A stretch of 64,000 nucleotides of DNA from Escherichia coli (lineage in GTDB: Bacteria > Pseudomonadota > Gammaproteobacteria > Enterobacterales > Enterobacteriaceae), in assembly GCF_013315695.1 (NCBI RefSeq), contig NZ_CP054353.1; one strand, given 5' to 3'. Position 1 is the first letter of the stretch; each line of letters opens with the position of its first letter. Position numbers and translations under genes: made by a program. This document shows, one piece after another, positions 32,397-60,011 of the stretch. A model generated the notes under the pieces. It had not been told where the DNA came from, did no database searches, and saw only the letters and a list, made by a program, of their open reading frames with translations.

Positions 32397-32426
32397 CTAG
32401 AGCTCTGGCTTTAGAAGGAGTTAACC

Positions 32427-34617: not shown

Positions 34618-34627
34618 ATAACTCCCG

Positions 34628-37738: not shown

Positions 37739-37836
37739 ATATCCGATGGCGAAATAACAAACGGATAGTGCTTAGTGAGCAATAAGAAACAATTTTCACT
37801 CGCGACAATCCGCGAGTTTTTGGGATAACAGACTAA

Positions 37837-39978
37837 ATGGCTATGTTCACACCTTCATTCTCAGGACTCAAAGGTCGGGCGCTCTTTTCACTGCTTTTTG
37901 CGGCACCGATGATTCATGCAACAGACTCTGTAACGACCAAAGATGGCGAAACAATCACTGTTACAGCAGATGCAAATACCGCAACTGAGGCAACCGATGG
38001 TTATCAACCTCTGAGCACCTCTACGGCGACATTAACCGATATGCCGATGCTGGATATCCCGCAGGTGGTCAATACGGTTAGCGATCAGGTTCTGGAAAAC
38101 CAGAATGCGACAACGCTGGATGAGGCGCTTTATAACGTCAGTAACGTGGTACAGACCAATACATTAGGCGGGACTCAGGATGCTTTTGTACGCCGTGGGT
38201 TTGGCGCAAACCGGGATGGCTCCATCATGACCAACGGCCTGCGAACTGTACTTCCTCGCAGTTTCAACGCCGCCACAGAACGTGTGGAAGTGCTAAAAGG
38301 TCCGGCCTCCACGCTGTATGGCATTCTCGATCCTGGTGGATTGATTAACGTCGTGACCAAGCGCCCGGAAAAAACATTCCATGGTTCTGTCTCAGCCACG
38401 TCCTCCAGTTTTGGCGGAGGCACTGGGCAACTTGATATCACAGGTCCCATTGAAGGCACTCAGCTGGCATACCGCCTGACGGGGGAAGTGCAGGATGAAG
38501 ATTACTGGCGAAACTTCGGTAAAGAGCGCAGTACATTTATTGCCCCGTCACTCACCTGGTTTGGTGATAATGCAACAGTAACCATGCTCTATTCCCATCG
38601 GGACTATAAAACTCCGTTCGATCGTGGAACGATTTTCGACCTTACGACGAAACAGCCCGTAAACGTTGATCGAAAAATACGTTTTGACGAACCGTTTAAT
38701 ATTACAGATGGTCAGTCCGATCTGGCGCAACTCAACGCAGAATATCATCTCAATAGCCAGTGGACAGCGCGCTTTGATTACAGCTACAGCCAGGATAAAT
38801 ACAGCGACAATCAGGCTCGCGTTACCGCGTATGATGCAACGACAGGAACGCTGACACGGCGTGTTGATGCAACTCAGGGATCTACCCAGCGTATGCATTC
38901 TACTCGTGCGGATCTGCAAGGGAATGCTGATATTGCTGGGTTCTATAATGAGATTCTGGGTGGGGTGTCATATGAATATTATGATCTTCTGCGCACAGAT
39001 ATGATTCGCTGTAAAAACGCTAAAGATTTCAATATCTACAACCCCGTTTATGGCAATACCAGCAAATGCACAACGGTTTCGGCGTCGGACAGTGATCAGA
39101 CGATCAAACAGGAGAGCTACTCAGCGTATGCACAGGACGCGCTCTATCTGACCGATAACTGGATTGCCGTCGCCGGGATCCGCTATCAGTATTACACGCA
39201 GTATGCGGGTAAAGGCCGTCCTTTTAATGTCAATACTGACAGCCGCGATGAACAATGGACGCCCAAACTGGGGTTAGTCTACAAACTGACGCCATCGGTA
39301 TCCTTATTTGCCAATTATTCGCAAACATTTATGCCGCAGTCGTCAATTGCCAGCTACATTGGCGATCTTCCACCGGAATCATCTAATGCTTACGAAGTCG
39401 GGGCAAAATTCGAGCTATTCGATGGTATCACCGCAGATATTGCGCTGTTTGATATCCATAAACGTAACGTGTTGTATACCGAAAGTATTGGTGATGAAAC
39501 CATTGCCAAAACGGCAGGCCGTGTTCGTTCAAGAGGGGTAGAAGTCGACCTTGCGGGAGCATTAACTGAAAACATTAATATCATTGCCAGCTACGGCTAT
39601 ACCGATGCTAAGGTTCTGGAGGATCCTGATTATGCAGGGAAACCATTGCCGAATGTTCCTCGTCATACCGGTTCGCTATTCCTGACTTATGACATTCATA
39701 ACATGCCTGGCAATAACACACTGACGTTTGGCGGTGGTGGACATGGCGTAAGCCGTCGTTCGGCAACCAATGGGGCTGACTATTATCTGCCAGGCTATTT
39801 CGTTGCCGATGCCTTCGCTGCATACAAAATGAAATTGCAGTATCCGGTCACACTGCAATTAAACGTCAAAAACCTGTTTGATAAAACGTATTACACCTCT
39901 TCCATCGCCACAAATAATCTGGGGAATCAGATTGGCGATCCGCGTGAAGTGCAATTCACGGTGAAAATGGAATTTTGA
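37837..39978 (+). CDS. TonB-dependent outer-membrane siderophore-type receptor
   Basis: 713 aa; signal peptide; TonB-box-like ETITVTA; C-terminal aromatic residue (F). Confidence 0.85.
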   Translation: MAMFTPSFSGLKGRALFSLLFAAPMIHATDSVTTKDGETITVTADANTATEATDGYQPLSTSTATLTDMPMLDIPQVVNTVSDQVLENQNATTLDEALYNVSNVVQTNTLGGTQDAFVRRGFGANRDGSIMTNGLRTVLPRSFNAATERVEVLKGPASTLYGILDPGGLINVVTKRPEKTFHGSVSATSSSFGGGTGQLDITGPIEGTQLAYRLTGEVQDEDYWRNFGKERSTFIAPSLTWFGDNATVTMLYSHRDYKTPFDRGTIFDLTTKQPVNVDRKIRFDEPFNITDGQSDLAQLNAEYHLNSQWTARFDYSYSQDKYSDNQARVTAYDATTGTLTRRVDATQGSTQRMHSTRADLQGNADIAGFYNEILGGVSYEYYDLLRTDMIRCKNAKDFNIYNPVYGNTSKCTTVSASDSDQTIKQESYSAYAQDALYLTDNWIAVAGIRYQYYTQYAGKGRPFNVNTDSRDEQWTPKLGLVYKLTPSVSLFANYSQTFMPQSSIASYIGDLPPESSNAYEVGAKFELFDGITADIALFDIHKRNVLYTESIGDETIAKTAGRVRSRGVEVDLAGALTENINIIASYGYTDAKVLEDPDYAGKPLPNVPRHTGSLFLTYDIHNMPGNNTLTFGGGGHGVSRRSATNGADYYLPGYFVADAFAAYKMKLQYPVTLQLNVKNLFDKTYYTSSIATNNLGNQIGDPREVQFTVKMEF

Positions 39979-39980
39979 TC

Positions 39981-40022
39981 AAAAAAGCCCGGTATACACT
40001 TGTATACCGGGCTATTTTTTAT
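39981..40022. terminator. bidirectional terminator between the receptor gene and parE
   Basis: Hairpin agcccggtatacacttgtataccgggct flanked by an A-run and a T-run. Confidence 0.55.
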
Positions 40023-40041
40023 TCTTCTGGCGGGAGGATTA

Positions 40042-41937
<1,896 letters not shown>

Positions 41938-41962
41938 TTAAGTTAGCAATTCGAGTTGATCG

Positions 41963-42544
41963 TCAGAGATGGTGCAGACCAAGAAAATCGACGATCGGGT
42001 TGAAATAATCTTCGAAGCCCGTGAATGCGTGGTTGCCGCCTTCTATGACAGTCTGGCGGCAGGAAGCGTAGTACGCCACCGCCTGGCGGTAATCCAGCAC
42101 TTCATCTCCCGTCTGTTGCAGCAGCCAGATCAAATCCGGCGCTTCCAGCGGGTCAATCTGCATGACTTTGAGATCGTAAATATGGCGTGACTCTAGCACA
42201 TATTGCTGCCCGGTGTAGGGGTTCTCGTTCTGACCGAGATAGTCCGTCAGCAGTTCAAACGGGCGCACCGCCGGGTTGACCACCACTGCGGGCAGCATAA
42301 AACATTGCGACAACCAGGTGGCGTAATATCCCCCCAGTGACGAACCGACAATACCCAGCGAATCGCCGCCATGTTCCAGGACAATGGATTCCAGCAGTTC
42401 TGCCGCGTCAGAAGGATACGGCGGCAACTGCGGAATGATCATCTCTACGTCAGGGTGATGTTCCGCCAACCAGTTTTTTAACAAGCTCGCTTTTGCAGAG
42501 CGCGGCGAGCTGTTGAAACCGTGTAAATAAAGAAGCGTAGACAT
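41963..42544 (-). CDS. yqiA: alpha/beta-hydrolase esterase
   Basis: 193 aa. Confidence 0.8.
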
Positions 42545-43371
42545 CAGTAGCCTTCTGAAGCGGTATCAGGTTGGAAACGTGTGTCCGCCAGGCGATGCAC
42601 CTCGGTGGTCAGCGTGCCATCAGCATGTAACTCGAGAGTACGCCAGCCGGGCGCGATGGTGTCCAGCGTAAAGTTAGAACAGTGCGGCTTAAACTGCACA
42701 CAGGTCGACGGCGTTGCCAGCAGGCGGCGACCGTTCCAGTCGAGATCCAGCTCCTGATGAATATGACCGCACAGCAAGTATTTGACGTGCGGAAACTTCG
42801 CCAGCACGGTATCCAGTTCGCCCGCGTTACGCAGGCTGTGTTGATCAAGCCAACTACAACCCGCAGGTAGCGGATGATGATGCAGCAGCAGCAACGTATG
42901 GCGTTCTGGCGCATCGGCCAGTTTACGTTCCAGCCACTCAAGCTGAAACTCGCTCAGCTCACCGTGCGGCACGCCAAACACCTGGCTATCCAGCAACAGG
43001 ATTTGCCATTGCTCACCAATAAACACCCGCTTCGCCGGGGAGATACCCGCATCCTGTAACGCGCTGTACATCGCGGGCTGGAAATCGTGGTTGCCCGGCA
43101 GCCAGACGCAGGGCGCACGAAAACTTGCGATGCCTTCAGCGAAATGCTGATAGGCCGCAGAGGATTGATCCTGCGCTAAATCACCTGTCGCGACAATCAG
43201 GTCGAATTCGTGCTGGTGTGGCCGAATCGCCTCCAGCACCGCCTGGTAGCTTTCCCAGGTGTTTACCCCTAACAGGGCTTCGTGCTTTTGCGCAAACAGG
43301 TGAGTGTCGGTAATTTGTAAAATCCTGACTCTGGCCTCACCAGCCAGAGGAAGGGTTAACAGGCTTTCCAA
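42544..43371 (-). CDS. cpdA: 3',5'-cyclic AMP phosphodiesterase
   Basis: 275 aa metallophosphoesterase. Confidence 0.85.
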
Positions 43372-43395
43372 ATGGTGTCCTTAGGTTTCACGACG

Positions 43396-43818
43396 CTAAT
43401 AAACCGGAATCGCCATCGCTCCATGTGCTAAACAGTATCGCAACCAGTCCGCTAAAAACTGATTAATTTGATGCTTTTCGTCGCGTTGATGCAACTTTTT
43501 ATTAGGATAATCATACCGCGCTTTGAAGCGAAAAATCTGCTGGCTTGAACACACTTCAGCCACCATCGCGTCATGATACAGACGCACCGTCATTGACGGA
43601 AGGCTCCAGTAACTGATCGCGGGCGCAGTCTGTTCTATTGTCACCAGGGTAGTGTATCGGGTCGATTCCACAATCGTCAGCCGATATTGTGCGTTTGCCA
43701 CCTGATAGCTTACAGTTTCGCCGGGTGCGTCATTGCGCGGTAACAAACGGCGCAATTGTGAAAAGTTCATCTCGCACAGGCGCATCATTTCAGGAAAGTC
43801 AGGTGTGTAACGCTTCAT
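43396..43818 (-). CDS. yqiB: DUF1249-family protein
   Basis: 140 aa. Confidence 0.75.
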
Positions 43819-44448
43819 TTATGCCCACTCATTTTTTAACGCTTGATGATGCAGCTGCAGCCATTGCAAAGCGATGACCGACGCTGCGTTGTCGATTTTC
43901 CCCTCTTCTACCCACTGGTATGCCTGTTCCCGGCTTACCACATGAACGCGAATATCTTCGTTTTCATCAGCCAGACCGTGAATACCGCTTGCGGTCGTGG
44001 CGTCCACTTCGCCCACCATAATTGACGAACGCTCACTGGTGCCCCCCGGGCTTGCCAGGAAACTTAACACCGGTTTGGTCCGTTTGACTATCAGCCCCGC
44101 CTCTTCAATCGCTTCGCGACGGGCAACATCTTCCACACTTTCCCCCTCTTCAATCATCCCGGCAACCATCTCCAGTAGCCAGGGGGTTTCGCTAGTGTCG
44201 TACGCGGCAATTCGAATCTGCTCAATCAGCACAACTTCATCACGCACTGGGTCAAAGGGTAGCAAGACTGCGGCGTGACCGCGCTCAAAAATTTCCCGCC
44301 GTACCTCATGACTCATTTGCCCGTTGAATAGACGATGACGAAATCTATAAAGATCTAATGAAAAAAAGCCGCGATAAAGTGTTTCTCGTGCAATAATTTC
44401 TACATCGTTTTTGCCAAATGTAACGGGCAGGTTGTCTGGCTTAAGCAT
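43819..44448 (-). CDS. nudF: ADP-ribose pyrophosphatase (Nudix)
   Basis: 209 aa; Nudix box. Confidence 0.85.
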
Positions 44449-44652
44449 TGTTAATGTCCTGGCACTAATAGTGAATTAAATGTGAATTTCAGCGACGTTT
44501 GACTGCCGTTTGAGCAGTCATGTGTTAAATTGAGGCACATTAACGCCCTATGGCACGTAACGCCAACCTTTTGCGGTAGCGGCTTCTGCTAGAATCCGCA
44601 ATAATTTTACAGTTTGATCGCGCTAAATACTGCTTCACCACAAGGAATGCAA

Positions 44653-46134
44653 ATGAAGAAATTGCTCCCCATTCTTATCGGCCTGAGCCTTTCTGGGTTC
44701 AGTTCGTTGAGCCAGGCCGAGAACCTGATGCAAGTTTATCAGCAAGCACGCCTTAGTAACCCGGAATTGCGTAAGTCTGCTGCCGATCGTGATGCTGCCT
44801 TTGAAAAAATTAATGAAGCGCGCAGTCCATTACTGCCACAGCTAGGTTTAGGTGCAGATTACACCTACAGCAACGGCTACCGCGACGCGAACGGCATCAA
44901 CTCTAACGCGACCAGTGCGTCCCTGCAGTTAACTCAATCCATTTTTGATATGTCGAAATGGCATGCGTTAACGCTGCAGGAAAAAGCAGCTGGGATTCAG
45001 GACGTCACGTATCAGACCGATCAACAAACCTTGATCCTCAACACCGCGACCGCTTATTTCAACGTGTTGAATGCTATTGACGTTCTTTCCTATACACAGG
45101 CGCAAAAAGAAGCGATCTACCGTCAATTAGATCAAACCACCCAACGTTTTAACGTGGGCCTGGTAGCGATCACTGACGTGCAGAACGCCCGCGCACAGTA
45201 CGATACCGTGCTGGCGAACGAAGTGACCGCACGTAATAACCTTGATAACGCGGTAGAGCAGCTGCGCCAGATCACCGGTAACTACTATCCGGAACTGGCG
45301 GCGCTGAATGTCGAAAACTTTAAAACCGACAAACCACAGCCGGTTAACACGCTGCTGAAAGAAGCCGAAAAACGCAACCTGTCGTTGTTACAGGCGCGCT
45401 TGAGCCAGGACCTGGCGCGCGAGCAAATTCGCCAGGCGCAGGATGGTCACTTACCGACTCTGGATTTAACGGCTTCTACCGGGATTTCTGACACCTCTTA
45501 TAGCGGTTCGAAAACCCGTGGTGCCGCTGGTACCCAGTATGACGATAGCAATATGGGCCAGAACAAAGTTGGCCTGAGCTTCTCGCTGCCGATTTATCAG
45601 GGCGGAATGGTTAACTCGCAGGTGAAACAGGCCCAGTACAACTTTGTTGGTGCCAGCGAGCAACTGGAAAGCGCGCATCGTAGCGTCGTGCAAACCGTAC
45701 GTTCCTCCTTCAACAACATTAATGCTTCTATCAGTAGCATTAACGCCTACAAACAAGCCGTAGTTTCCGCTCAAAGCTCATTAGACGCGATGGAAGCGGG
45801 CTACTCGGTCGGTACGCGTACCATTGTTGATGTGTTGGATGCGACCACCACGCTGTACAACGCTAAGCAAGAGCTGGCAAATGCGCGTTATAACTACCTG
45901 ATTAACCAGTTGAATATTAAGTCAGCTCTGGGTACGTTGAACGAGCAGGATCTGCTGGCACTGAACAATGCGCTGAGCAAACCGGTTTCCACTAATCCGG
46001 AAAACGTTGCCCCGCAAACGCCGGAACAGAATGCTATTGCTGATGGTTATGCGCCTGATAGCCCGGCACCCGTCGTTCAGCAAACATCCGCACGCACTAC
46101 CACCAGTAACGGTCATAACCCTTTCCGTAACTGA
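44653..46134 (+). CDS. tolC: outer-membrane efflux channel
   Basis: 493 aa from MKKLLPILIGLSL...; AAGGA RBS. Confidence 0.95.
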   Translation: MKKLLPILIGLSLSGFSSLSQAENLMQVYQQARLSNPELRKSAADRDAAFEKINEARSPLLPQLGLGADYTYSNGYRDANGINSNATSASLQLTQSIFDMSKWHALTLQEKAAGIQDVTYQTDQQTLILNTATAYFNVLNAIDVLSYTQAQKEAIYRQLDQTTQRFNVGLVAITDVQNARAQYDTVLANEVTARNNLDNAVEQLRQITGNYYPELAALNVENFKTDKPQPVNTLLKEAEKRNLSLLQARLSQDLAREQIRQAQDGHLPTLDLTASTGISDTSYSGSKTRGAAGTQYDDSNMGQNKVGLSFSLPIYQGGMVNSQVKQAQYNFVGASEQLESAHRSVVQTVRSSFNNINASISSINAYKQAVVSAQSSLDAMEAGYSVGTRTIVDVLDATTTLYNAKQELANARYNYLINQLNIKSALGTLNEQDLLALNNALSKPVSTNPENVAPQTPEQNAIADGYAPDSPAPVVQQTSARTTTSNGHNPFRN

Positions 46135-46281
46135 TGACGACGACGGGGCTTCGGCCCCGTCTGAACGTAAGGCAACGTAAAGATACGGGTTATCTGCCGC
46201 ATTCTTCCCCCTTCTCGCTTCAATTTCGACCAGCCATCCTCTATTCTGATGGGTATTTACCACTGGTCCCGGAAGACAAAA

Positions 46282-46953
46282 ATGAAACGGACAAAATCCA
46301 TACGCCACGCATCGTTCCGCAAAAACTGGAGCGCACGCCATCTGACACCAGTCGCTCTCGCGGTTGCCACTGTTTTTATGCTGGCGGGCTGTGAAAAGAG
46401 TGATGAAACAGTGTCTCTCTATCAAAATGCTGACGACTGTTCAGCTGCAAACCCAGGCAAAAGCGCCGAATGTACCACTGCGTACAACAATGCGCTGAAA
46501 GAAGCCGAACGTACTGCGCCGAAATACGCCACCCGTGAAGACTGTGTTGCTGAATTTGGTGAAGGTCAGTGCCAGCAGGCACCAGCCCAGGCTGGCATGG
46601 CACCGGAAAACCAGGCGCAGGCCCAGCAATCCAGCGGGAGTTTCTGGATGCCGCTGATGGCCGGTTACATGATGGGGCGTCTGATGGGCGGCGGCGCGGG
46701 ATTTGCACAGCAGCCGCTGTTCTCCTCGAAAAACCCAGCCAGCCCGGCTTACGGTAAATATACCGACGCGACGGGTAAAAACTATGGCGCAGCCCAGCCA
46801 GGCCGCACCATGACCGTACCGAAGACGGCAATGGCACCAAAACCGGCGACCACCACCACCGTTACTCGTGGCGGTTTTGGTGAATCTGTTGCCAAACAAA
46901 GCACTATGCAGCGTAGCGCAACCGGCACCTCTTCTCGTTCAATGGGTGGCTGA
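46282..46953 (+). CDS. ygiB: DUF1190-family lipoprotein
   Basis: 223 aa from [10 protein letters not shown]... Confidence 0.75.
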
Positions 46954-46958
46954 TACCG

Positions 46959-48119
46959 ATGGAAAGAGTCAGTATTACCGAGCGCCCGGACTGGCGCGAA
47001 AAAGCCCACGAATACGGTTTCAATTTTCACACCATGTACGGCGAGCCGTACTGGTGTGAAGATGCTTACTACAAGTTGACCCTCGCCCAGGTTGAAAAGC
47101 TGGAAGAAGTCACCGCCGAACTGCACCAGATGTGCCTGAAAGTGGTGGAAAAAGTGATCGCCAGCGATGAGCTGATGACCAAATTCCGCATACCAAAACA
47201 CACCTGGAGTTTTGTGCGCCAGTCATGGCTGACGCACCAGCCATCGCTTTATTCGCGTCTTGATCTGGCGTGGGATGGCACTGGCGAACCTAAGCTTCTG
47301 GAAAATAACGCCGATACGCCAACGTCACTATACGAGGCGGCGTTCTTTCAGTGGATCTGGCTGGAAGATCAGCTTAACGCCGGTAACTTGCCGGAGGGCA
47401 GCGACCAGTTTAACAGTTTGCAAGAAAAGCTGATCGATCGCTTCGTTGAGCTGCGTGAACAGTATGGCTTCCAGTTGCTGCATCTCACCTGCTGTCGCGA
47501 CACGGTGGAAGATCGCGGAACCATTCAGTATTTGCAGGACTGCGCGACGGAAGCTGAAATCGCTACCGAGTTCCTCTACATCGACGATATCGGGTTAGGT
47601 GAAAAAGGTCAGTTCACGGATTTACAGGATCAGGTGATTTCCAACCTGTTCAAGCTGTATCCGTGGGAATTTATGTTGCGTGAGATGTTCTCCACCAAGC
47701 TGGAGGATGCAGGCGTACGCTGGCTGGAACCGGCGTGGAAGAGCATTATCTCCAACAAAGCGCTTCTACCGCTACTGTGGGAGATGTTCCCGAATCACCC
47801 GAACCTGCTGCCCGCTTATTTTGCGGAAGATGATCATCCGCAAATGGAAAAATATGTGGTTAAACCGATCTTCTCCCGTGAAGGCGCAAACGTGTCGATC
47901 ATTGAGAACGGCAAAACCATTGAAGCAGCGGAAGGTCCGTATGGCGAAGAAGGGATGATTGTTCAGCAATTCCACCCGTTACCGAAATTCGGCGACAGCT
48001 ATATGCTGATTGGTAGCTGGCTGGTGAACGATCAACCTGCCGGAATTGGCATTCGTGAAGACCGTGCATTGATCACCCAGGATATGTCTCGGTTTTATCC
48101 GCATATTTTTGTTGAGTAA
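46959..48119 (+). CDS. ygiC: glutathionylspermidine-synthase-like ATP-grasp protein
   Basis: 386 aa. Confidence 0.8.
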
Positions 48120-48215
48120 TACAGCTTAATATTGCCCCGATAAGCGGGGCAATCTCTTATAATCCACCATTCATAATTCCCATCAATATATAAACACATA
48201 CATATCCAACCTTTA

Positions 48216-48245
48216 TTTAACATTAATACTCAATTTAATGTTAAA
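48216..48245. repeat. perfect 11-bp inverted repeat with an 8-bp spacer in the assT leader
   Basis: tttaacattaa-tactcaat-ttaatgttaaa, about 360 bp upstream of assT in very AT-rich DNA. Confidence 0.4.
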
Positions 48246-48603
48246 TCGTCATATGCAAGCGATATTGTAATTAAAGTAAGTGAATACATCACAACATAAC
48301 TATTTGATATTATTTGAATACTTTACTTTTATCTCACCAGATTTAAATTTAATAATTAAAAAACAATGTTGCAGGGATCACACTACACAGTATTGAACAT
48401 TGTGATTGATATATTGCCCCCCTACTATCCATTAAACATAAATATTTGTTTCACCGAATAACAACATATTTAAAAGAAACACAAAAGCATTCTCACTCTT
48501 TATTGAATTAATATTCATATTCACGTAACGAATTTATTAGAACCCTCTCAACAGTCGATATTCATCATTATTATATATTTGCGTTATATAAGGAGATATA
48601 TCC

Positions 48604-50400
48604 ATGTTTGATAAATATAGAAAAACACTCGTAGCCGGAACTGTGGCGATAACCCTGGGTTTGTCAGCATCGGGGGTGATGGCTGCGGGTTTTAAACCAG
48701 CGCCGCCTGCCGGGCAACTGGGTGCGGTCATTGTCGATCCCTACGGCAATGCACCACTGACCGCTTTGGTTAACTTAGATAGCCATGTTATTTCTGACGT
48801 CAAAGTTACCGTCCATGGGAAGGGCGAAAAAGGCGTAGAAATCAGCTATCCCGTGGGTCAGGAATCACTAAAAACTTACGATGGTGTACCGATTTTTGGT
48901 CTTTATCAGAAATTTGCTAACAAAGTGACCGTTGAGTGGAAAGAAAACGGCAAGGTCATGAAAGATGATTATGTGGTGCACACTTCGGCCATCGTCAACA
49001 ATTACATGGATAACCGCTCCATCTCCGACCTACAGCAAACCAAAGTCGTTAAAGTCGCGCCAGGTTTTGAAGATCGCCTCTATCTGGTTAATACCCACAC
49101 CTTTACCGCCCAAGGTTCCGATCTCCACTGGCATGGTGAGAAAGATAAAAATGCCGGTATCCTTGATGCGGGTCCGGCAACTGGCGCACTCCCTTTTGAT
49201 ATCGCGCCCTTTACTTTCATCGTCGATACCGAAGGTGAATACCGCTGGTGGCTGGATCAAGACACTTTCTACGATGGTCGTGACCGCGATATCAACAAGC
49301 GTGGTTATCTGATGGGTATCCGCGAAACGCCACGCGGCACCTTTACCGCTGTACAAGGTCAGCACTGGTACGAGTTCGACATGATGGGGCAGGTGCTCGA
49401 AGATCACAAACTACCGCGCGGATTTGCTGACGCTACTCATGAATCCATTGAGACGCCAAATGGCACAGTATTGTTGCGCGTAGGTAAGAGCAATTACCGT
49501 CGCGATGACGGCGTACACGTCACCACCATTCGTGACCATATCCTCGAAGTCGATAAATCTGGTCGCGTTGTAGATGTATGGGATCTGACGAAGATCCTCG
49601 ATCCGAAACGCGATGCACTGCTCGGCGCGCTGGATGCAGGTGCAGTTTGCGTTAACGTTGACCTTGCCCATGCAGGACAACAGGCAAAACTGGAACCAGA
49701 TACACCGTTCGGCGACGCTCTGGGTGTAGGGCCAGGCCGTAACTGGGCGCACGTTAATTCCATCGCTTATGACGCAAAAGATGACTCAATTATTCTCTCT
49801 TCTCGTCACCAGGGTGTTGTGAAGATTGGTCGTGATAAGCAAGTGAAATGGATCCTTGCACCCTCTAAAGGTTGGGAAAAACCGCTGGCCAGCAAGCTGC
49901 TGAAACCGGTTGATGCTAACGGTAAGCCAATTACCTGTAACGAAAATGGCCTGTGCGAAAACTCAGACTTCGACTTTACCTACACCCAGCATACCGCCTG
50001 GATTTCCAGCAAAGGAACGCTCACCATTTTTGATAATGGCGATGGTCGTCATCTGGAACAACCTGCCTTACCAACCATGAAATATTCCCGCTTTGTGGAA
50101 TATAAGATTGATGAGAAGAAAGGCACCGTTCAGCAAGTGTGGGAATACGGTAAAGAACGTGGCTACGATTTCTATAGCCCAATCACCTCCATCATTGAAT
50201 ATCAAGCCGACCGTAACACCATGTTTGGCTTCGGTGGTTCTATTCATTTGTTCGATGTCGGGCAGCCAACCGTCGGTAAGTTGAACGAAATCGATTACAA
50301 AACCAAAGAAGTGAAAGTGGAAATCGACGTGCTGTCAGATAAACCCAATCAGACTCACTATCGTGCATTGTTAGTCCGTCCACAACAGATGTTCAAATAA
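48604..50400 (+). CDS. assT: periplasmic arylsulfate sulfotransferase
   Basis: 598 aa; signal peptide; followed by a dedicated DsbA/DsbB-like pair. Confidence 0.8.
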   Translation: MFDKYRKTLVAGTVAITLGLSASGVMAAGFKPAPPAGQLGAVIVDPYGNAPLTALVNLDSHVISDVKVTVHGKGEKGVEISYPVGQESLKTYDGVPIFGLYQKFANKVTVEWKENGKVMKDDYVVHTSAIVNNYMDNRSISDLQQTKVVKVAPGFEDRLYLVNTHTFTAQGSDLHWHGEKDKNAGILDAGPATGALPFDIAPFTFIVDTEGEYRWWLDQDTFYDGRDRDINKRGYLMGIRETPRGTFTAVQGQHWYEFDMMGQVLEDHKLPRGFADATHESIETPNGTVLLRVGKSNYRRDDGVHVTTIRDHILEVDKSGRVVDVWDLTKILDPKRDALLGALDAGAVCVNVDLAHAGQQAKLEPDTPFGDALGVGPGRNWAHVNSIAYDAKDDSIILSSRHQGVVKIGRDKQVKWILAPSKGWEKPLASKLLKPVDANGKPITCNENGLCENSDFDFTYTQHTAWISSKGTLTIFDNGDGRHLEQPALPTMKYSRFVEYKIDEKKGTVQQVWEYGKERGYDFYSPITSIIEYQADRNTMFGFGGSIHLFDVGQPTVGKLNEIDYKTKEVKVEIDVLSDKPNQTHYRALLVRPQQMFK

Positions 50401-50417
50401 TTAAGAAGGGAATAAAA

Positions 50418-51086
50418 ATGTCGAAATTAGGGATCTCATCACTATTTAAAAGCATACTGCTTACTGCAGCTTTGGCTGTTTCATTTACCGCCTCTGCATT
50501 TACCGAAGGCACGGATTACATGGTTCTGGAAAAACCTATTCCGAATGCAGACAAAACGCTGATTAAGGTATTCAGCTACGCCTGCCCGTTCTGTTACAAG
50601 TACGACAAAGCGGTTACCGGTCCGGTATCGGAAAAAGTGAAAGATATCGTTGCTTTCACGCCGTTCCATCTGGAAACCAAAGGTGAATACGGCAAACAAG
50701 CAAGCGAAGTCTTTGCGGTCTTGATCAATAAAGATAAAGCAGCAGGCATTTCCTTATTTGATGCTAACTCTCAGTTTAAGAAAGCCAAGTTTGCCTACTA
50801 CGTGGCTTATCACGACAAAAAAGAACGCTGGTCTGACGGTAAAGATCCGGCTGCTTTTATCAAAACCGGTCTGGATGCCGCAGGTATGAGTCAGGCGGAT
50901 TTTGAAGCGGCACTGAAAGAACCAGCGGTTCAAGAAACACTGGAAAAATGGAAAGCCTCTTATGATGTCGCCAAAATCCAGGGGGTTCCAGCCTATGTCG
51001 TTAATGGTAAGTACTTGATCTACACCAAGAGCATCAAATCCATCGACGCGATGGCAGACCTTATCCGTGAGTTAGCAAGCAAATAA
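50418..51086 (+). CDS. dsbL: DsbA-like periplasmic thiol:disulfide oxidoreductase
   Basis: 222 aa; signal peptide; CPFC active site. Confidence 0.75.
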
Positions 51087-51100
51087 CAGGGAAACAGGCT

Positions 51101-51772
51101 ATGGGTATTAAGGGAATGTGGAAAGATCTTCGCACATCACCAGTTGACACACTGGTCAGATGGCAGGAGCAACGCTTGTTGTGGTTGTTAATGGCCGTTG
51201 CGATGGGCGCGTTAATTATCCTGGCGCACTCTTTCTTCCAGATCTATCTCTACATGGCACCCTGTGAGCAATGTGTATACATTCGCTACGCCATGTTTGT
51301 GATGGTTATTGGAGGATTGGTTGCAGCGATCAACCCAAAGAACATCATCCTAAAGCTAATTGGCTGCGTGATGGCATTTTACGGCAGCATTTTGGGACTG
51401 AAGTTTTCGCTCAAACTGAACGATATCCACCATGCAGTACATAATCCGGATCCCGATTCACTGTTTGGCGTACAGGGTTGCTCTACCGATCCAACTTTTC
51501 CCTTTAACCTGCCGCTGGCACAGTGGGCACCAAATTGGTTCAAGCCTACCGGGGATTGTGGCTATGACGCACCAATCGTTCCTGATGGCGTCACACTGAG
51601 CAGCACGCAACAGTGGTTTGTGGAAATGTATCAGCAATCTGAAGGCTGGTATCTGCTACCACCATGGCATTTTATGAATATGGCTCAGGCTTGTATGCTG
51701 GCTTTTGGTATGTGTCTGGTGCTGCTGGTCATTATGAGTGGCGCATGGGCGCTTAAAATCATCAGAGGCTAA
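51101..51772 (+). CDS. dsbI: DsbB-like membrane disulfide oxidoreductase
   Basis: 223 aa; TM helices with paired Cys. Confidence 0.75.
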
Positions 51773-51782
51773 CTCAGCAACA

Positions 51783-51817
51783 CCCGAAGCCAGTCATTCT
51801 GGCTTCGGGTTCTTTTA
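51783..51817 (+). terminator. rho-independent terminator after dsbI
   Basis: Hairpin cccgaagccag...ctggcttcggg followed by ttcttttatt. Confidence 0.5.
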
Positions 51818-52606
51818 TTAACCTATCTGCACCGACAGCATACTTAAACTGCCCATTTCTATACCATCGACCGGAATGGTAATTGGCTCCTGCCCATCCC
51901 ACGCACCTAACACATACAACAACGGCAGATAGTGCTCTGGCGTTGGGTTCGATAACGCGCCACCTTCATGGTCGAGATAATTCACCAGAGGATGTTGTTC
52001 CACCGGCCCTTGCCACGTCAGATTCGCTTTCACATACTCATTAAACGACGTCGCCCACGGATACGGTGAACTATCACCGTGCCACTTCACTGTACGCAGG
52101 TTATGCACCACGTTGCCACTGGCGACCAACATTATCCCTTCATCACGCAGCGCCGCGAGTTTGCGCCCCATTTCGAAATGCCAGGCGGCAGGTTTGCTAC
52201 TGTCGATACTCAACTGCACCATCGGGATATCGGCGTCAGGATACATCTTAATCAGTACGCCCCACGAGCCGTGGTCGAAGCCCCAGGCTTCTTTATCCAG
52301 CGTCACAGGGACCGGCGCTAACAGCTCAACCAGATGCTGTGCCAGCGCAGGTGAACCCGGAGCAGGATAATGCGTATCGTACAGCGCCTGCGGGAAGCCA
52401 CCAAAGTCATGAATCGTGGGCGGCGTCTCCATCGCGGTCACTCCTGTTCCACGGGTAAACCAGTGAGCCGAAACCACCACTATTGCTTGCGGGCGTGGCA
52501 ATGTCATCCCCAACGTCTGCCAGCTGCGGGTATACAAATTATCTTCCAGCACGTTCATCGGACTACCGTGACCTAAAAACAATGCTGGCATACGTGTTGA
52601 AGACAT
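51818..52606 (-). CDS. ygiD: extradiol ring-cleavage dioxygenase (DOPA-dioxygenase-like)
   Basis: 262 aa from MSSTRMPALF...; AAGGA RBS. Confidence 0.8.
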   Translation of the reverse strand: MSSTRMPALFLGHGSPMNVLEDNLYTRSWQTLGMTLPRPQAIVVVSAHWFTRGTGVTAMETPPTIHDFGGFPQALYDTHYPAPGSPALAQHLVELLAPVPVTLDKEAWGFDHGSWGVLIKMYPDADIPMVQLSIDSSKPAAWHFEMGRKLAALRDEGIMLVASGNVVHNLRTVKWHGDSSPYPWATSFNEYVKANLTWQGPVEQHPLVNYLDHEGGALSNPTPEHYLPLLYVLGAWDGQEPITIPVDGIEMGSLSMLSVQIG

Positions 52607-52748
52607 GATGATATCCTTAACTAAAGGTGTCATTTTGATATCCTCACAATACGCTTGTTCGGCGGAGTAAGAACCCGGATAACAATGATGATGATCATCA
52701 GTTATTTTGACGATCTGCCTGAAAGTGAAGATTTATAAGGAGTTGTCG

Positions 52749-53522
52749 ATGTCAGTACCTCTCATTCTGACCATACTGGCGGGGGCAGCCACGTTTATTG
52801 GCGCGTTTCTCGGCGTTCTCGGGCAAAAACCCTCGAACCGCTTACTGGCGTTTTCGCTAGGATTTGCGGCGGGGATCATGTTGCTCATCTCATTAATGGA
52901 AATGCTTCCTGCCGCATTAGCCGCCGAAGGAATGTCACCTGTGTTGGGTTATGGAATGTTTATCTTCGGTCTGCTTGGCTATTTTGGCCTGGACCGCATG
53001 TTGCCACATGCGCATCCGCAGGATTTAATGCAAAAATCGGTGCAGCCGTTGCCAAAATCGATCAAGCGCACAGCCATTCTGCTCACTCTCGGCATCAGTC
53101 TGCATAACTTCCCGGAAGGGATTGCCACCTTTGTCACGGCGAGCAGCAACCTGGAGCTGGGCTTTGGCATCGCACTGGCCGTTGCGTTACACAATATTCC
53201 TGAAGGTCTGGCGGTTGCAGGCCCGGTTTACGCGGCAACGGGGTCTAAACGCACCGCGATTCTTTGGGCGGGGATTTCTGGACTGGCAGAAATTCTTGGT
53301 GGTGTGCTGGCGTGGTTAATCCTCGGTAGCATGATTTCCCCGGTGGTCATGGCGGCAATCATGGCGGCGGTTGCAGGAATTATGGTGGCGCTCTCGGTTG
53401 ATGAATTAATGCCGCTCGCCAAAGAGATTGACCCTAATAATAACCCCAGCTATGGCGTACTATGTGGAATGTCAGTGATGGGATTCAGTTTAGTGCTGCT
53501 ACAAACGGCGGGAATTGGTTAA
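52749..53522 (+). CDS. zupT: ZIP-family zinc transporter
   Basis: 257 aa from [10 protein letters not shown]...; AAGGAG RBS. Confidence 0.9.
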
Positions 53523-53579
53523 AAGCAACATCAGAAGTTGTCCAGCGCATGGACAACTTCTGCCAGCTTCACTAAAGCC

Positions 53580-53750
53580 TTATTCTACCTTTTCGGCTGT
53601 CTCTTCTCTCGTACTGTTTAAGTATTTGTTCCGCGCTTCAAGCAGTGCGTCTCTGTCCTGGCGAAACGCCCGACAATAACGTTTCAAATGCAGGAAATAA
53701 CCCACAACAACAAGAGCAATCAATACAATCCAGTACCAGGCGATAAACAT
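53580..53750 (-). CDS. hypothetical small membrane protein (56 aa from the ATG)
   Basis: Single predicted TM helix (FIAWYWIVLIALVVVGYFL); AAGG before the ATG at 53750; the track ORF starts at an upstream TTG. Confidence 0.35.
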   Translation of the reverse strand: MFIAWYWIVLIALVVVGYFLHLKRYCRAFRQDRDALLEARNKYLNSTREETAEKVE

Positions 53751-53940
53751 CCTTTTACCCTTAATATTTAACAATACTAAACATTTAGCGCATAAATTTC
53801 ACATATCCTTTTTCGGATATATTCATATGGTCGCATAATAACGGAACAATTATATGATTTTGATCATAATGAAAAAGAATGCCTGATATTAATGAAATTT
53901 TCTCATAGAAAGAGAAGCGGAATTAACATCTTGCTTAGCA

Positions 53941-53980
53941 GGGAAAAATAAAAACCGAAGCCTGCTACAACTTCGGTTTC
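53941..53980 (-). terminator. ribB rho-independent terminator
   Basis: Hairpin aaccgaag...cttcggtt followed on the minus strand by a T-run. Confidence 0.5.
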
Positions 53981-54011
53981 TTGATTAAGGCAGTAAATTA
54001 AGCAGCGGTTT

Positions 54012-54665
54012 TCAGCTGGCTTTACGCTCATGTGCCTGACGGTATGCCACCAGGTCTTCAATAGTCACGAGCGCCATATTGTGTTTATTGGCAAACTCAA
54101 TGCACTCTGGTGCACGCGCCATCGTGCCATCGTCATTAGTCAGCTCACACAGCACACCAGCCGGTTTAAAGCCTGCCAGCGTCATTAGATCAATAGTTGC
54201 TTCAGTATGACCGCCACGCGTCAGTACTCCACCTGCCTGCGCGCGAAGTGGGAAAACGTGGCCCGGGCGATTCAGATCAGAAGGTTTTGCGTCATCGGCA
54301 ATCGCTGCGCGAACGGTCGTAATACGGTCAGCGGCAGAAACACCGGTAGTCACACCTTCAGCCGCTTCAATGGTCACGGTAAAACCGGTGCCATAGGCGC
54401 TGGTGTTATTTTCTACCATCATTGGCAGATCGAGTTGTTTACGGCGATCTTCAGTAATGCACAGGCAAACAATACCGCTACCGTGGCGAATGGTCAGCGC
54501 CATCTGCTCAACGGTCATGGTTTCTGCCGGGAAGATCATATCGCCTTCGTTTTCACGGTCTTCATCATCAAGCACCATTACACCGCGTCCTTCACGCAGC
54601 GCAGCCAGTGCATTTTCAACACGTTCGAAAGGCGTACCAAAAGAGGAAAGTAGCGTCTGATTCAT
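54012..54665 (-). CDS. ribB: 3,4-dihydroxy-2-butanone-4-phosphate synthase
   Basis: 217 aa. Confidence 0.95.
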
Positions 54666-54699
54666 GGTAAAAAAACCTCACTAAAATTATGGTTACCAG

Positions 54700-54935
54700 A
54701 ATCAGGGCAGTCTTAGGAGTGGCGGCATATAGCCAAAATAACGTGAGCGGGTCCATGCCCGACAGAATCGTTACTCTCTCCCATCCGGACTCTAACCGTC
54801 GGCCCCGGAATTACACCGGATCTGCTGTCCTTTGAGTTCGCACCCAAAGCGCTCGCGGGCTTTCAACTGAGTTGATTTACCGCCGGTGGGGAATTTCGCC
54901 CCGCCCTGAGAATAAGCGGATTCACTATAACGCTA
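54700..54935 (-). promoter_or_regulatory. FMN riboswitch (RFN element) in the ribB leader
   Basis: Minus strand carries GGGCGGGGCGAAATTCCCCACCGGCGG and the downstream GGATGGGAGAGAG-type conserved segments. Confidence 0.8.
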
Positions 54936-55038
54936 ATGATTAGCGGCAGCAACGCATAGCTTCACATAATTCTGGTTTATGACTTACCCTTATCGCACTA
55001 CAATGGCACTCAACACCTATCAGTACAGGGAAACTACA

Positions 55039-55338
55039 ATGATTGACCCGAAAAAAATTGAGCAAATCGCTCGCCAGGTTCACGAATCAATGCCTAAAGG
55101 AATCAGGGAGTTCGGGGAAGATGTGGAGAAAAAAATCCGCCAAACCCTACAAGCGCAGCTGACACGTCTCGATCTGGTAAGCCGCGAAGAATTCGACGTT
55201 CAGACGCAAGTCCTGTTACGGACTCGTGAAAAACTGGCGTTACTGGAACAGCGCATCAGTGAACTGGAAGCGCGCAATAATTCGGTAGCAGATCTTCAAT
55301 CTCCTCCGGCTATCCCGCCTATTGATAAAGCAGAATAA
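55039..55338 (+). CDS. ubiK: ubiquinone-biosynthesis accessory factor (BMFP family)
   Basis: 99 aa from [14 protein letters not shown]...; coiled-coil. Confidence 0.75.
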
Positions 55339-55343
55339 AGCAA

Positions 55344-55372
55344 CACAAAAACGGGCCAGACGGCCCGTAATA
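55344..55372. terminator. bidirectional terminator between convergent ubiK and glgS
   Basis: Hairpin acgggcc-aga-cggcccgt. Confidence 0.45.
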
Positions 55373-55573
55373 TCAGTGTTCTAATTCAAGTTCTCTGGTT
55401 TGCATCATTTGTTGGCAATACCAGGCATAACGTGCGCAAAACCAGGTTCTATGTTCTTCATCCATGTTACCAGTAACGGCCAGAATATCGACCGGGCGAC
55501 CTTCTGCGTGCATTCTGGCAAAACTACGCGCCAGGAAATCGAAATTATTTAAAGAATTAAGACTATGATCCAT
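55373..55573 (-). CDS. glgS: surface-composition regulator GlgS
   Basis: 66 aa from [13 protein letters not shown]...; GGAGG RBS. Confidence 0.85.
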
Positions 55574-55841
55574 AAGCACATCCTCCGGTTATCGCATACC
55601 TTTTAAGGCCATATGCTTTTTCTGATTTCAGTATTCACCAATCAGTGTAGTGCCTTTAAACATAACGTGCGTAAATATATTGTCCCCGATCACACTTTTT
55701 AGTGAAAAATAAAAAACCATATTAAAAGACTTTCTCTTCCAGAACTTCTCTAACATGTGTTATTATTAACAAAGATAAATGTAAGCAAGGAAACTATCAT
55801 AAAGTAAATATTGCGTCACTAAATGGACATTGGAGTGACAT

Positions 55842-56471
55842 ATGATTTTATTCGCCGACTATAACACCCCTTATCTTTTCGCTATTTCCTTTGTACTGTT
55901 GATCGGCCTTTTAGAAATTTTTGCGCTTATCTGCGGTCACATGCTCTCCGGTGCACTTGATGCACATCTTGACCATTATGATTCCATAACCACAGGTCAT
56001 ATTAGCCAGGCACTTCATTATCTCAATATCGGAAGATTGCCAGCTCTCGTCGTTCTTTGCTTACTGGCTGGTTTTTTTGGTCTTATTGGCATCCTGTTGC
56101 AGCATACCTGCATCATGGTCTGGCAATCACCACTCTCGAACCTGTTTGTGGTTCCTGTCAGTTTACTGTTTACGATTATTGCGGTGCATTATACCGGTAA
56201 AATAGTTGCGCCCTGGATTCCACGCGATCATAGCTCAGCTATTACAGAAGAAGAATATATTGGTAGCATGGCGTTAATTACCGGTCATCAAGCCACTTCA
56301 GGTAATCCCTACGAAGGAAAACTCACCGATCAATTTGGCCAAATACATTATTTACTACTGGAGCCTGAAGAAGGAAAAATTTTCACTAAAGGAGACAAAG
56401 TGTTAATTATTTGCCGACTTTCTGCAACTCGATATTTGGCGGAAAACAATCCCTGGCCCCAAATATTGTAA
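55842..56471 (+). CDS. yqiJ: NfeD-like inner membrane protein
   Basis: 209 aa; N-terminal TM helices; precedes the flotillin-like yqiK. Confidence 0.8.
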
Positions 56472-56497
56472 TTTATTAATCAAAAGGAAATTTAATA

Positions 56498-58159
56498 ATG
56501 GATGATATTGTTAATTCTGTGCCCTCCTGGATGTTTACCGCGATTATTGCCGTATGCATTCTGTTTATTATTGGAATTATTTTCGCCAGGCTCTATCGTC
56601 GCGCTTCGGCAGAGCAAGCTTTTGTTCGTACTGGTTTAGGTGGGCAAAAAGTGGTAATGAGCGGTGGCGCAATCGTGATGCCGATCTTTCATGAAATAAT
56701 CCCCATCAATATGAATACTCTGAAGCTGGAAGTCAGCCGCTCAACCATTGATAGCCTGATTACGAAAGATCGTATGCGCGTCGATGTCGTTGTCGCTTTC
56801 TTTGTGCGGGTAAAACCGTCAGTGGAAGGTATTGCCACCGCCGCCCAGACGCTGGGGCAACGCACCCTGTCGCCTGAAGACTTACGTATGTTGGTTGAAG
56901 ATAAATTTGTCGATGCCCTCCGTGCAACAGCTGCACAAATGACCATGCATGAGTTACAGGATACCCGCGAGAACTTCGTGCAGGGCGTACAAAATACCGT
57001 TGCTGAAGATCTGTCGAAAAACGGCCTGGAACTGGAAAGCGTTTCACTTACCAACTTTAACCAGACGTCGAAAGAACATTTCAATCCTAACAACGCCTTT
57101 GACGCCGAAGGTTTAACCAAGCTGACGCAGGAGACGGAGCGCCGTCGTCGCGAACGTAACGAAGTTGAACAGGATGTAGAAGTTGCGGTGCGTGAGAAAA
57201 ACCGTGATGCGCTTTCGCGGAAGCTGGAGATTGAACAGCAAGAAGCGTTTATGACGCTTGAGCAGGAGCAGCAGGTTAAAACCCGTACCGCTGAGCAGAA
57301 TGCGAAAATTGCGGCTTTTGAAGCTGAACGTCGTCGTGAAGCAGAGCAGACGCGAATTCTGGCTGAACGACAGATTCAGGAAACAGAAATCGACCGCGAA
57401 CAGGCCGTCCGCTCAAGAAAAGTTGAAGCTGAACGTGAAGTTCGCATTAAAGAGATCGAACAACAGCAGGTCACCGAAATCGCCAACCAGACGAAATCGA
57501 TCGCTATTGCCGCCAAATCGGAACAGCAGTCACAAGCGGAAGCGCGTGCCAACCTTGCACTTGCAGAAGCGGTAAGCGCCCAGCAAAACGTAGAAACCAC
57601 TCGCCAGACCGCAGAAGCCGATCGTGCTAAACAAGTTGCCCTAATCGCTGCCGCGCAGGATGCAGAAACCAAAGCGGTTGAACTGACCGTGCGGGCGAAA
57701 GCAGAGAAAGAAGCCGCAGAGATGCAGGCGGCGGCGATCGTTGAGTTAGCCGAAGCAACACGCAAAAAAGGCCTGGCGGAAGCAGAAGCGCAACGTGCGC
57801 TGAACGACGCTATCAACGTACTTTCTGACGAGCAAACCAGCCTTAAATTCAAACTGGCCTTGTTGCAGGCGCTACCTGCGGTAATTGAGAAATCCGTGGA
57901 ACCAATGAAGTCCATTGACGGTATCAAGATTATTCAGGTCGATGGATTAAACCGAGGTGGTGCTGCGGGGGATGCGGCATCAGGCAGCGTTAGTGGCGGA
58001 AACCTGGCAGAACAGGCATTGTCTGCCGCCCTTTCTTACCGCACACAGGCACCGCTGATTGACTCCTTGCTCAATGAAATTGGCGTTTCAGGCGGCTCAC
58101 TGGCGGCATTGACTTCCCCCTTAACCTCAACAACTCCCGTCGAAGAAAAAACAGAGTAA
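56498..58159 (+). CDS. yqiK: SPFH/band-7 flotillin-like protein
   Basis: 553 aa; N-terminal TM helix, SPFH domain, long charged coiled-coil (EA-rich). Confidence 0.85.
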   Translation: MDDIVNSVPSWMFTAIIAVCILFIIGIIFARLYRRASAEQAFVRTGLGGQKVVMSGGAIVMPIFHEIIPINMNTLKLEVSRSTIDSLITKDRMRVDVVVAFFVRVKPSVEGIATAAQTLGQRTLSPEDLRMLVEDKFVDALRATAAQMTMHELQDTRENFVQGVQNTVAEDLSKNGLELESVSLTNFNQTSKEHFNPNNAFDAEGLTKLTQETERRRRERNEVEQDVEVAVREKNRDALSRKLEIEQQEAFMTLEQEQQVKTRTAEQNAKIAAFEAERRREAEQTRILAERQIQETEIDREQAVRSRKVEAEREVRIKEIEQQQVTEIANQTKSIAIAAKSEQQSQAEARANLALAEAVSAQQNVETTRQTAEADRAKQVALIAAAQDAETKAVELTVRAKAEKEAAEMQAAAIVELAEATRKKGLAEAEAQRALNDAINVLSDEQTSLKFKLALLQALPAVIEKSVEPMKSIDGIKIIQVDGLNRGGAAGDAASGSVSGGNLAEQALSAALSYRTQAPLIDSLLNEIGVSGGSLAALTSPLTSTTPVEEKTE

Positions 58160-58175
58160 ACCCTCTTCTATGAAT

Positions 58176-58208
58176 AATCCCTGGCCCAAAAAGCCGGGGA
58201 TTTTTTAT
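58176..58208 (+). terminator. yqiK rho-independent terminator
   Basis: Hairpin aatccctggc...gccggggatt followed by a T-run. Confidence 0.5.
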
Positions 58209-58339
58209 ATCTGCGTTCCGCTAAAAAGTACAAATGTTCAGGTTGTTACAGCGTTTTTCGAGCCGACTCGGGGAAGAGAAAACTGCATAAGAGAAAGCAT
58301 TGCGCGGGGTCTGGCGCTCATCAACAATCGGGGAGTCAG

Positions 58340-58480
58340 CAAGGGGCTGAAACGGGAAAGCCCCTCCCGAGGAAGGGGCCTTATAGAAGGAAAGGGTTAT
58401 GATGAAGTTCGTCATCATACTGGTTGTGTTGTTACTGTTAAGTTTCCCGACTTACTAACAACTCATCAGAGGGGGGAGAA
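58340..58480 (-). ncRNA. sib: Sib-type antisense sRNA antitoxin (boundaries approximate)
   Basis: Inferred from the ibs ORF and the GC-rich hairpins on the opposite strand; no promoter or terminator mapped. Confidence 0.35.
58399..58458 (+). CDS. ibs: Ibs-type type I toxin peptide, 19 aa (MMKFVIILVVLLLLSFPTY)
   Basis: atgatgaag... ORF with a GGAAAGG RBS; hydrophobic peptide ending in FPTY; below the size cutoff of the ORF track. Confidence 0.6.
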   Translation: MMKFVIILVVLLLLSFPTY

Positions 58481-58577
58481 ATCCTCCCTTACCCTTGTTC
58501 CTTTACTTTAGGTTGAAAAAACAACAGCGTCAATAGGTCTATCCGGCACAACGCGAGAACTGTGAAGCGCTTTCCGG

Positions 58578-60011
58578 TTAGCCTTTTTTATCCTGTTGGA
58601 TCTTCTTGATAATGTTAGTGGTCGAGCAACCGTCTTCAAAGTTGAGCACCAGCACTTCGCCACCATTGGCCCAGACTTCTTTACTCCCGGCAATCTCTTC
58701 TGGTTTATAATCGCCGCCTTTCACCAGCAGGTCTGGCAGGATCCCGGCGATCAAGCGCTGCGGCGTGTCTTCTTCAAACGACACCACCCAGTCGACCGCT
58801 TCCAGTGCGCCCAGCACAATCATACGCTGTTCGAGCGGGTTAACGGGGCGGGAATCCCCTTTCAGCCGTTTGGTGGAGGCATCGCTGTTGACGGCGACAA
58901 TCAAACGGTCACCCAGTTTACGGGCATTTGCCAGATAAGAGACGTGTCCGGCGTGCAGGATGTCAAAGACGCCATTGGTCATCACCACTTTTTCACCGCG
59001 TTTACGCGCTGCCGCTACAGCAAGCTTCAGTTCCTCTTCGGTCATCACGCCAAAGCCGGTATCTGCACGTCCACGTACTGCATTTTCCAGCTCGATCGGC
59101 GAAACCGTGGATGTCCCCAGTTTGCCGACCACCACACCAGCCGCCGCATTGGCAAAGAAGCAGGCTTCTTCCAGCGAATTACCCGCTGCCAGCGTTGCCG
59201 CCAGGACACCAATCACCGTGTCGCCCGCACCGGTAACGTCATACACTTCCTGCGCCTGGGTTGGCATATGCAGCGGCGCTTTACCCGGTTGCAGCAGCGA
59301 CATACCCTGTTCGGAACGGGTCACTAACAGAGCCGAGAGTTCGTAATCGGCAATCAGTTTCATGCCGCGCTCAACAATCTCTTCTTCGGTTTTACATTTA
59401 CCGACAACAGCTTCAAATTCCGAGAGATTCGGCGTTAACAGCGTAGCGCCGCGGTAGCGCTCAAAATCGGTACCTTTTGGATCAATCAGCACCGGAACAC
59501 CCGCTTTACGCGCCAGTTGGATCATCTGCTGTACGCTTGCCAGCGCACCTTTGGCGTAGTCAGAAAGCACCAGCGCGCCAATCGAACTCAGCGCCTGATT
59601 AATCCGTTCGTGCAGCGGCTGCGGATCAACACCTTCGAAACCTTCTTCAAAATCCAGACGAATCAGCTGTTGGTTGCGGGAAAGCACCCGTAATTTGGTG
59701 ATGGTCGGATGCGTCGGTACAGAAACGAAGTCGCATTTGACGTTGACGTCGGCCAGAGATTTACTCAGCGCGCGCGCCGCATCGTCAATGCCCGTTAACC
59801 CGACCAGGCGTGCATTAGCACCGAGAGAAGCGATATTCATCGCCACGTTAGCCGCGCCGCCCGGACGTTCTTCGATGGTATTTACTTTAACCACGGGCAC
59901 CGGCGCTTCCGGCGAGATACGGCTGGTGGGACCGTACCAGTAACGATCCAGCATCACATCACCAACCACCATCACTCCTGCACGTTCAAACTCTGGCAGC
60001 GTTACTTTCAT
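58578..60011 (-). CDS. hldE: bifunctional heptose 7-phosphate kinase / heptose 1-phosphate adenylyltransferase
   Basis: 477 aa. Confidence 0.95.

Follow-up and report, generated by a model that had tools for sequence, protein, structure and literature searches.

Escherichia coli K-12 carries a fimbrial operon between ubiK and glgS, whereas in the strain studied here the two genes almost touch, and the question raised by this locus is whether the operon has been lost from this chromosome or was never there. In the window, by which we mean the whole stretch of 64,000 nucleotides analysed, the sequence and the list of open reading frames place ubiK and glgS as convergent neighbours, tail to tail, with a spacer of exactly 34 bp, AGCAACACAAAAACGGGCCAGACGGCCCGTAATA. 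The RefSeq annotation of the E. coli blood isolate AF3 (NZ_OZ547117.1) agrees in its gene calls and in the 34-bp gap; from this isolate the window differs by 7 SNPs over positions 1..50000 and by none over 50900..59800. The separation given in a preliminary description of this DNA is thus borne out by the sequence, the reading frames and the annotation of a near-identical genome. The features of the junction and its surroundings are the following.

54012..54665, minus strand: ribB (open reading frame list, AF3 annotation)
54769..54917, minus strand: FMN riboswitch in the ribB leader (Rfam RF00050, 120.9 bits, E = 9e-29)
55039..55338, plus strand: ubiK (yqiC), 99 aa, with its TAA stop at 55336-55338 (open reading frame list, RefSeq annotation of AF3)
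55339..55372, no strand: the spacer, where the K-12 type has its Yqi-like fimbrial operon and the window has none (open reading frame list, AF3 annotation)
55351..55368, minus strand: hairpin with a 7-bp stem (6 G-C pairs) and a 4-nt loop (terminator scan, fold)
55373..55573, minus strand: glgS, 66 aa (open reading frame list, RefSeq annotation of AF3)

No gene of a chaperone-usher operon of the Yqi-like or Yqi type (usher, periplasmic chaperone, major subunit or adhesin) was found in the 64-kb window. The four Yqi-like proteins of K-12 and the four Yqi proteins of strain Nissle 1917 gave no tblastn match in it, and a sensitive blastn search with both islands recovered only the hairpin spacer and 119 bp of intergenic DNA on the yqiD side, with no genic remnant. 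The yqiGHI operon is therefore absent, as had been proposed, and the junction is clean, without a fimbrial scar at either the protein or the DNA level. A promoter scan over 54900-55900 reported no site, and when 53400-58600 was compared with Rfam under an E-value threshold, the FMN riboswitch and a Sib RNA were the only hits, with nothing in the spacer.

The preliminary description gave the K-12 arrangement as a chaperone-usher cluster plus an IS element between the two genes, and this was correct: the annotation of the K-12 derivative DH1Ec169 gives the order ubiK, ygiL, IS2, usher gene (yqiG), yqiH, yqiI, glgS. We checked whether K-12 might nevertheless have the same 34-bp spacer, and found that the stop codons of the two genes are 6,608 bp apart there, versus 34 bp in the window. 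The site, the flanking genes and the presence of a hairpin beside glgS are common to both haplotypes; they differ in the operon itself, which is absent from the window, in the length of UbiK (96 aa in K-12 versus 99 aa) and in two blocks of raised divergence in the flanks. Relative to K-12, the window can be divided as follows.

55164..55269, plus strand: left-hand divergent block, with 15 differences in 106 bp (~86% identity)
55270..55343, plus strand: segment that cannot be aligned to the K-12 type (Megablast breakpoints, pairwise alignments)
55344..55415, no strand: right-hand divergent block, with 14 differences in 72 bp (80.6% identity)

Further out the two sequences are practically the same, with 0 differences in the 620 bp of 54544-55163 and 1 in the 300 bp of 55416-55715. 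The unalignable segment takes in the final 23 codons of ubiK, which specify 22 residues and the stop, plus 5 bp beyond, and its counterpart in K-12 is a different ubiK tail followed by the 6.6-kb ygiL-IS2-yqiGHI island. Because homology is lost over 55270-55343, the last 22 residues of UbiK differ between the two types. The hairpin loop differs also, being ATCA in K-12 versus AGAC in the window. Judged from these alignments, K-12 does not simply have extra DNA inserted into the 34-bp spacer.

The island has a GC content of 40%, versus 49% in its flanks. No integrase is annotated in it, IS2 lying only inside the operon, and a search for direct repeats or att-like sequence at its ends gave nothing longer than a 7-mer common to both junctions. 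As a common word of this length is at chance level, site-specific insertion was rejected. The K-12 hairpin is retained beside glgS, where it now lies 3' of yqiI, and there is no terminator-like site between ubiK and ygiL of K-12.

The polarity of the difference can be approached through the outgroups. Seeded with GlgS, a scan in which each GTDB species was represented by a single genome gave 27 loci, with E. fergusonii, S. bongori and S. enterica subsp. enterica not among them. The non-E. coli genomes that keep both genes are the following.

Escherichia: E. albertii, E. whittamii, Escherichia sp. MOD1-EC7003, Escherichia sp. E1V33, and a record titled E. coli SCPM-O-B-8794
Other genera: 8 Citrobacter, 3 Trabulsiella, and Salmonella enterica subsp. 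arizonae and subsp. diarizonae

The record SCPM-O-B-8794 is called E. coli in its title, yet its divergence is on a par with that of the other non-coli Escherichia. In 18/18 of these genomes, from 4 genera, ubiK and glgS are convergent neighbours with spacers of 28-73 bp, and no fimbrial (yqi) gene lies between them in any of the 18. The 34-mer of the window is found unchanged in Escherichia sp. MOD1-EC7003 and is 1-2 bases off in three other divergent Escherichia genomes. The tight junction and the same hairpin stem being present throughout the 18 outgroups, the view that the window has the ancestral empty state is supported, although the direction of the event is something we infer.

Among E. 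coli themselves the empty state is ordinary. In a sample of 5,426 complete genomes we obtained the following counts.

ubiK-glgS contiguous: 2,062/5,426 (38%)
ubiK-glgS split at window position ~55270/55342: 3,363/5,426
K-12-type yqiH-yqiI DNA present: 3,356/5,426
yqiD-ribB contiguous: 4,429/5,426
Both junctions contiguous, as in the window: 1,110/5,426 (20.5%)

The numbers of split junctions and of genomes positive for yqiHI are nearly equal, and operon presence therefore tracks the occupancy of the site. Recognisable strains with contiguous ubiK-glgS include O157:H7, Nissle 1917, NU14, ST131, 536 and SMS-3-5; the site is occupied in K-12, HS, W, O26:H11 and O111:H8. From the strain names alone we take O157:H7 to be phylogroup E, Nissle, NU14, ST131 and 536 to be B2, and SMS-3-5 to be F. 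The polymorphism as such is already known, since Yqi and Yqi-like fimbriae were described by Wurpel et al. 2013 (PMC3559732), who associated the Yqi-like type with phylogroups A, B1, D and E. Phylogroup E is in that list, whereas the O157:H7 strains in our sample show the empty junction.

The K-12-type yqiH-yqiI query (K-12 8174..9989, locus L001), run against the E. coli genomes, revealed alleles of two clearly distinct kinds: 1,614 records matched at >=99% identity, 1,757 at 90-95%, and 30 fell between. This divergence is far above that of the flanking core genes, and the two classes suggest either two imports or a strong diversification of the chaperone and adhesin genes.

We consider it very probable that the 34-bp junction is original and was never occupied, and that the Yqi-like operon of K-12 is a later horizontal acquisition, likely by homologous recombination. 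In the original neighbourhood of Escherichia and its relatives, ubiK and glgS would have ended on either side of one conserved GC-rich hairpin. The ygiL-yqiGHI operon, now in 62% of complete E. coli genomes, would have been acquired later and horizontally, and placed between ubiK and the hairpin. Its entry was most likely through homologous recombination within ubiK and glgS, the donor presumably being a diverged relative that already carried the operon in that position. An import of this sort, by way of the flanks, would explain why K-12 types have a foreign ubiK 3' end, a foreign hairpin and a foreign glgS 3' end. The two divergent blocks (15/106 bp and 14/72 bp) abut the island and end abruptly; such sharp blocks around an island of 40% GC point to import by homologous recombination. 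Among the 27 fetched loci, no other genus has the donor gene order ubiK-yqi-glgS.

A different history, in which the lineage once had ygiL-yqiGHI and lost it by a deletion whose junction merely looks clean, would be in keeping with the frequent loss or degradation of fimbrial operons, with the IS2 carried by the K-12 operon itself, and with the gain in an ancestor followed by loss that Wurpel et al. 2013 (PMC3559732) put forward for many chaperone-usher types. The details of the junction make it very unlikely here. K-12 has the loop ATCA and 14 differences in the adjoining 72 bp, and a deletion starting from that haplotype could not restore the ancestral ubiK tail, a 34-mer that matches another Escherichia species base for base, and the loop AGAC; nor are there operon remnants in the window. 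As these sequences cannot be recreated by deletion, we rejected the deletion scenario. The empty junction might instead have been brought back by allelic replacement, if the ancestor had the operon and recombination with an empty-site donor swapped in the ancestral allele, flanks included. Recombination that is able to import the island can equally remove it, and the divergence blocks, which place the breakpoints in ubiK and glgS, do not tell which haplotype was the recipient. This course of events is nonetheless improbable, for it needs an extra step, and besides all the outgroups the empty allele is present in strains presumed from their names to be B2, E and F, which makes it more parsimonious that the operon was gained once, in the ancestry of A/B1-type strains. 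Even under allelic replacement the sequence of the window would be the ancestral allele. An assembly collapse, or some other artefact of the window, can practically be dismissed, the same contiguous junction being held by 2,062 complete RefSeq genomes and by the outgroup genomes.

The C-terminus of UbiK gives a further view of an original junction and an imported operon. The last 22 residues of the window protein are replaced by 19 in K-12. The window tail matches the outgroup consensus ...PPAIPP(V/I)DKAE, which in the Escherichia outgroups reads ...PPAIPPVDKAE, and it is related to the general enterobacterial EVKPAPAIPPVD-type tail carried by the other genera. When the K-12 UbiK was used as a query against 5.8 billion proteins and the tails were compared in the best 120 of 1,829 hits, the only carriers of the K-12 tail were proteins named E. 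coli or Shigella, nameless proteins and frameshifted variants; no donor outside E. coli/Shigella was found among these best 120 of 1,829 hits. The K-12 tail contains ELENRST, which is common in other genera, and a motif E-I-K-x-x-P...PP that parallels EVKPAPAIPP. In its sequence it resembles a diverged ubiK tail and not a read-through into foreign DNA. Nissle and the window, both empty haplotypes, have 91.9% identity over 55270-55343; the tail thus evolves quickly even among empty haplotypes, and part of the K-12 difference could therefore be divergence in situ. One might speculate, though we hold it doubtful, that the Yqi-like operon entered together with a foreign ubiK 3' end, and that the species consequently has two UbiK isoforms, an ancestral one of 99 aa and a K-12 one of 96 aa, which to judge by the counts are almost fully linked to the absence and presence of the operon. 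If this were true, and if the tail affects the UbiK-UbiJ complex or the membrane activity of UbiK, results on ubiquinone biosynthesis obtained in K-12 would rest on a non-ancestral, possibly xenologous UbiK.

The preliminary description also held that the two convergent genes share one hairpin terminator, and this claim stands only in part. There is a single hairpin in the spacer, reading ACGGGCC-AGAC-GGCCCGT on the plus strand, and it folds well in a 61-nt context, with -17.3 kcal/mol on the plus strand (z -4.7) and -19.2 kcal/mol on the minus strand (z -3.9); 0/200 shuffles fold as well. On the minus strand the terminator scan finds ACGGGCC-GTCT-GGCCCGT starting 4 nt past the glgS stop and followed by the T-run TTTTTGTGTTG. 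On the plus strand the hairpin comes 12 nt past the ubiK stop and its tail, TAATATCAGTGT, has no T-run, for which reason a terminator is called on the minus strand (glgS) only. In the 21 sequences compared (20 distinct ones), from 4 genera, the six pairs of the core stem CGGGCC/GGCCCG are invariant while nine different loops occur; covariation is seen in the outer stem, where three pairs have changed on both sides. Across the same alignment 88% of the cells are paired, versus 22-46% when the partner columns are slid. This pattern is the one expected of a structure under selection.

In the glgS direction a GC-rich stem-loop, a U-rich tract after the stop and conservation are thus all present, and the hairpin is a good predicted intrinsic terminator for glgS. 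A U-rich tract on both strands, as a bidirectional terminator would have, was not found, the scan reporting the minus strand only; for ubiK the hairpin would be at most a weak terminator or a stabiliser of the 3' end. It is like the intrinsic terminators that lie between convergent genes, bidirectional ones included, in having a GC-rich 7-bp stem and a 4-nt loop between two convergent stops, and in that an A-tract on one side is a T-tract on the other strand. It differs from them in that Escherichia has a T-run on the glgS strand only, whereas in Citrobacter Awk 4 and NCU1 the hairpin is flanked by a run on either side and looks bidirectional.

The neighbourhood contains another slot of the same kind, one step to the left.

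53751..54011, no strand: yqiD-ribB intergenic region, second slot, unoccupied here (Nissle annotation; breakpoint at window position 54014)

Nissle 1917 (B2) has a tight ubiK-glgS junction and a four-gene chaperone-usher operon between yqiD and ribB. This operon is the ExPEC Yqi cluster (EA/I, ExPEC adhesin I; "Ygi" in UPEC) of B2 ExPEC strains, described by Antao et al. 2009 (PMC2771359). It is like the Yqi-like operon of K-12 in its four-gene chaperone-usher type and in its neighbourhood, and differs in its slot, yqiD-ribB, and in sequence, the four proteins of Nissle having 59%, 56%, 51% and 37% identity to those of K-12; it, too, is absent from the window. Yqi and Yqi-like have been reported to be related, located at different loci and mutually exclusive (Wurpel et al. 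2013, PMC3559732). By subtraction of counts in the 5,426 genomes, yqiD-ribB is occupied or disrupted in ~950-1,000 genomes, and both slots are disrupted in at most ~44, a low number that fits with mutual exclusivity. Strains 536 and SMS-3-5 (12-kb search) and O157:H7 ATCC 43890 are contiguous across both slots, as is the window.

A yqi-type operon also lies just 3' of ribB in E. whittamii (L007 4494..9461) and in three Trabulsiella (L019, L020, L022), as it does in Nissle (L030 3085..8059). Identity of the Nissle Yqi proteins is 65-91% with their E. whittamii counterparts and 51-64% with the Trabulsiella ones. The yqiD-ribB operon may therefore be an old one that has been lost several times over, in contrast to the K-12-type operon at ubiK-glgS.

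Taken alone the finding matters little, as strains commonly differ from one another in their fimbrial genes in this way. A literature search on the two genes together with fimbriae gave genome-wide promoter surveys only, which are not relevant here. The junction does offer a clean, outgroup-rooted example of a fimbrial operon apparently gained at the terminator between convergent genes. It belongs to a small hot spot in which related chaperone-usher operons have two alternative sites to occupy, and both sites are empty in the window and in ~20% of complete genomes. The UbiK C-terminus and the glgS terminator region of K-12 would accordingly be a derived haplotype.

Several other differences were seen in and around the window. 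Close to the junction, a copy of the yqiJ region (~55656-56300 of the window) is present with 97.5% identity at 9310..9954 of the non-chromosomal record NZ_CP154598.1 (E. coli SEV4, 32,186 bp), which could be an assembly fragment or a mobilised piece of chromosome. The 3' part of yqiK (flotillin), at 57860..58020, has 77-86% identity to K-12, versus 97-100% around it, and could be either a further patch of recombination or a stretch prone to vary. At 58358..58533 there is one Sib antitoxin RNA (Rfam RF00113, 142 bits) with one ibs toxin gene (ibsE), versus two ibs genes in the yqiK-hldE interval of K-12 DH1; the copy number of this type I toxin-antitoxin repeat differs between the two. The AF3 annotation further gives a cluster at 14804..20264 with a GntR regulator, mannitol dehydrogenase, ADH, Ldh and TRAP genes, one at 32786..39978 with a siderophore ABC transporter and a TonB-dependent receptor, and assT-dsbL-dsbI at 48604..51770. 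These three clusters are not known to belong to the K-12 gene set. Finally, two inverted copies of IS1A, at 20293..20990 (plus strand) and 26185..26882 (minus strand), bracket parC-plsC-ftsP (21185..25901), which is on the plus strand while its neighbours ygiQ and ygiS are on the minus strand. Both IS1 copies adjoin truncated TRAP-transporter genes: the substrate-binding gene lies at 19455..20264, and of the large permease there is a pseudogene fragment at 25972..26181. Set against the K-12 gene order, the arrangement suggests that a ~5-kb segment with essential genes was inverted by way of IS1, some DNA being deleted as well.
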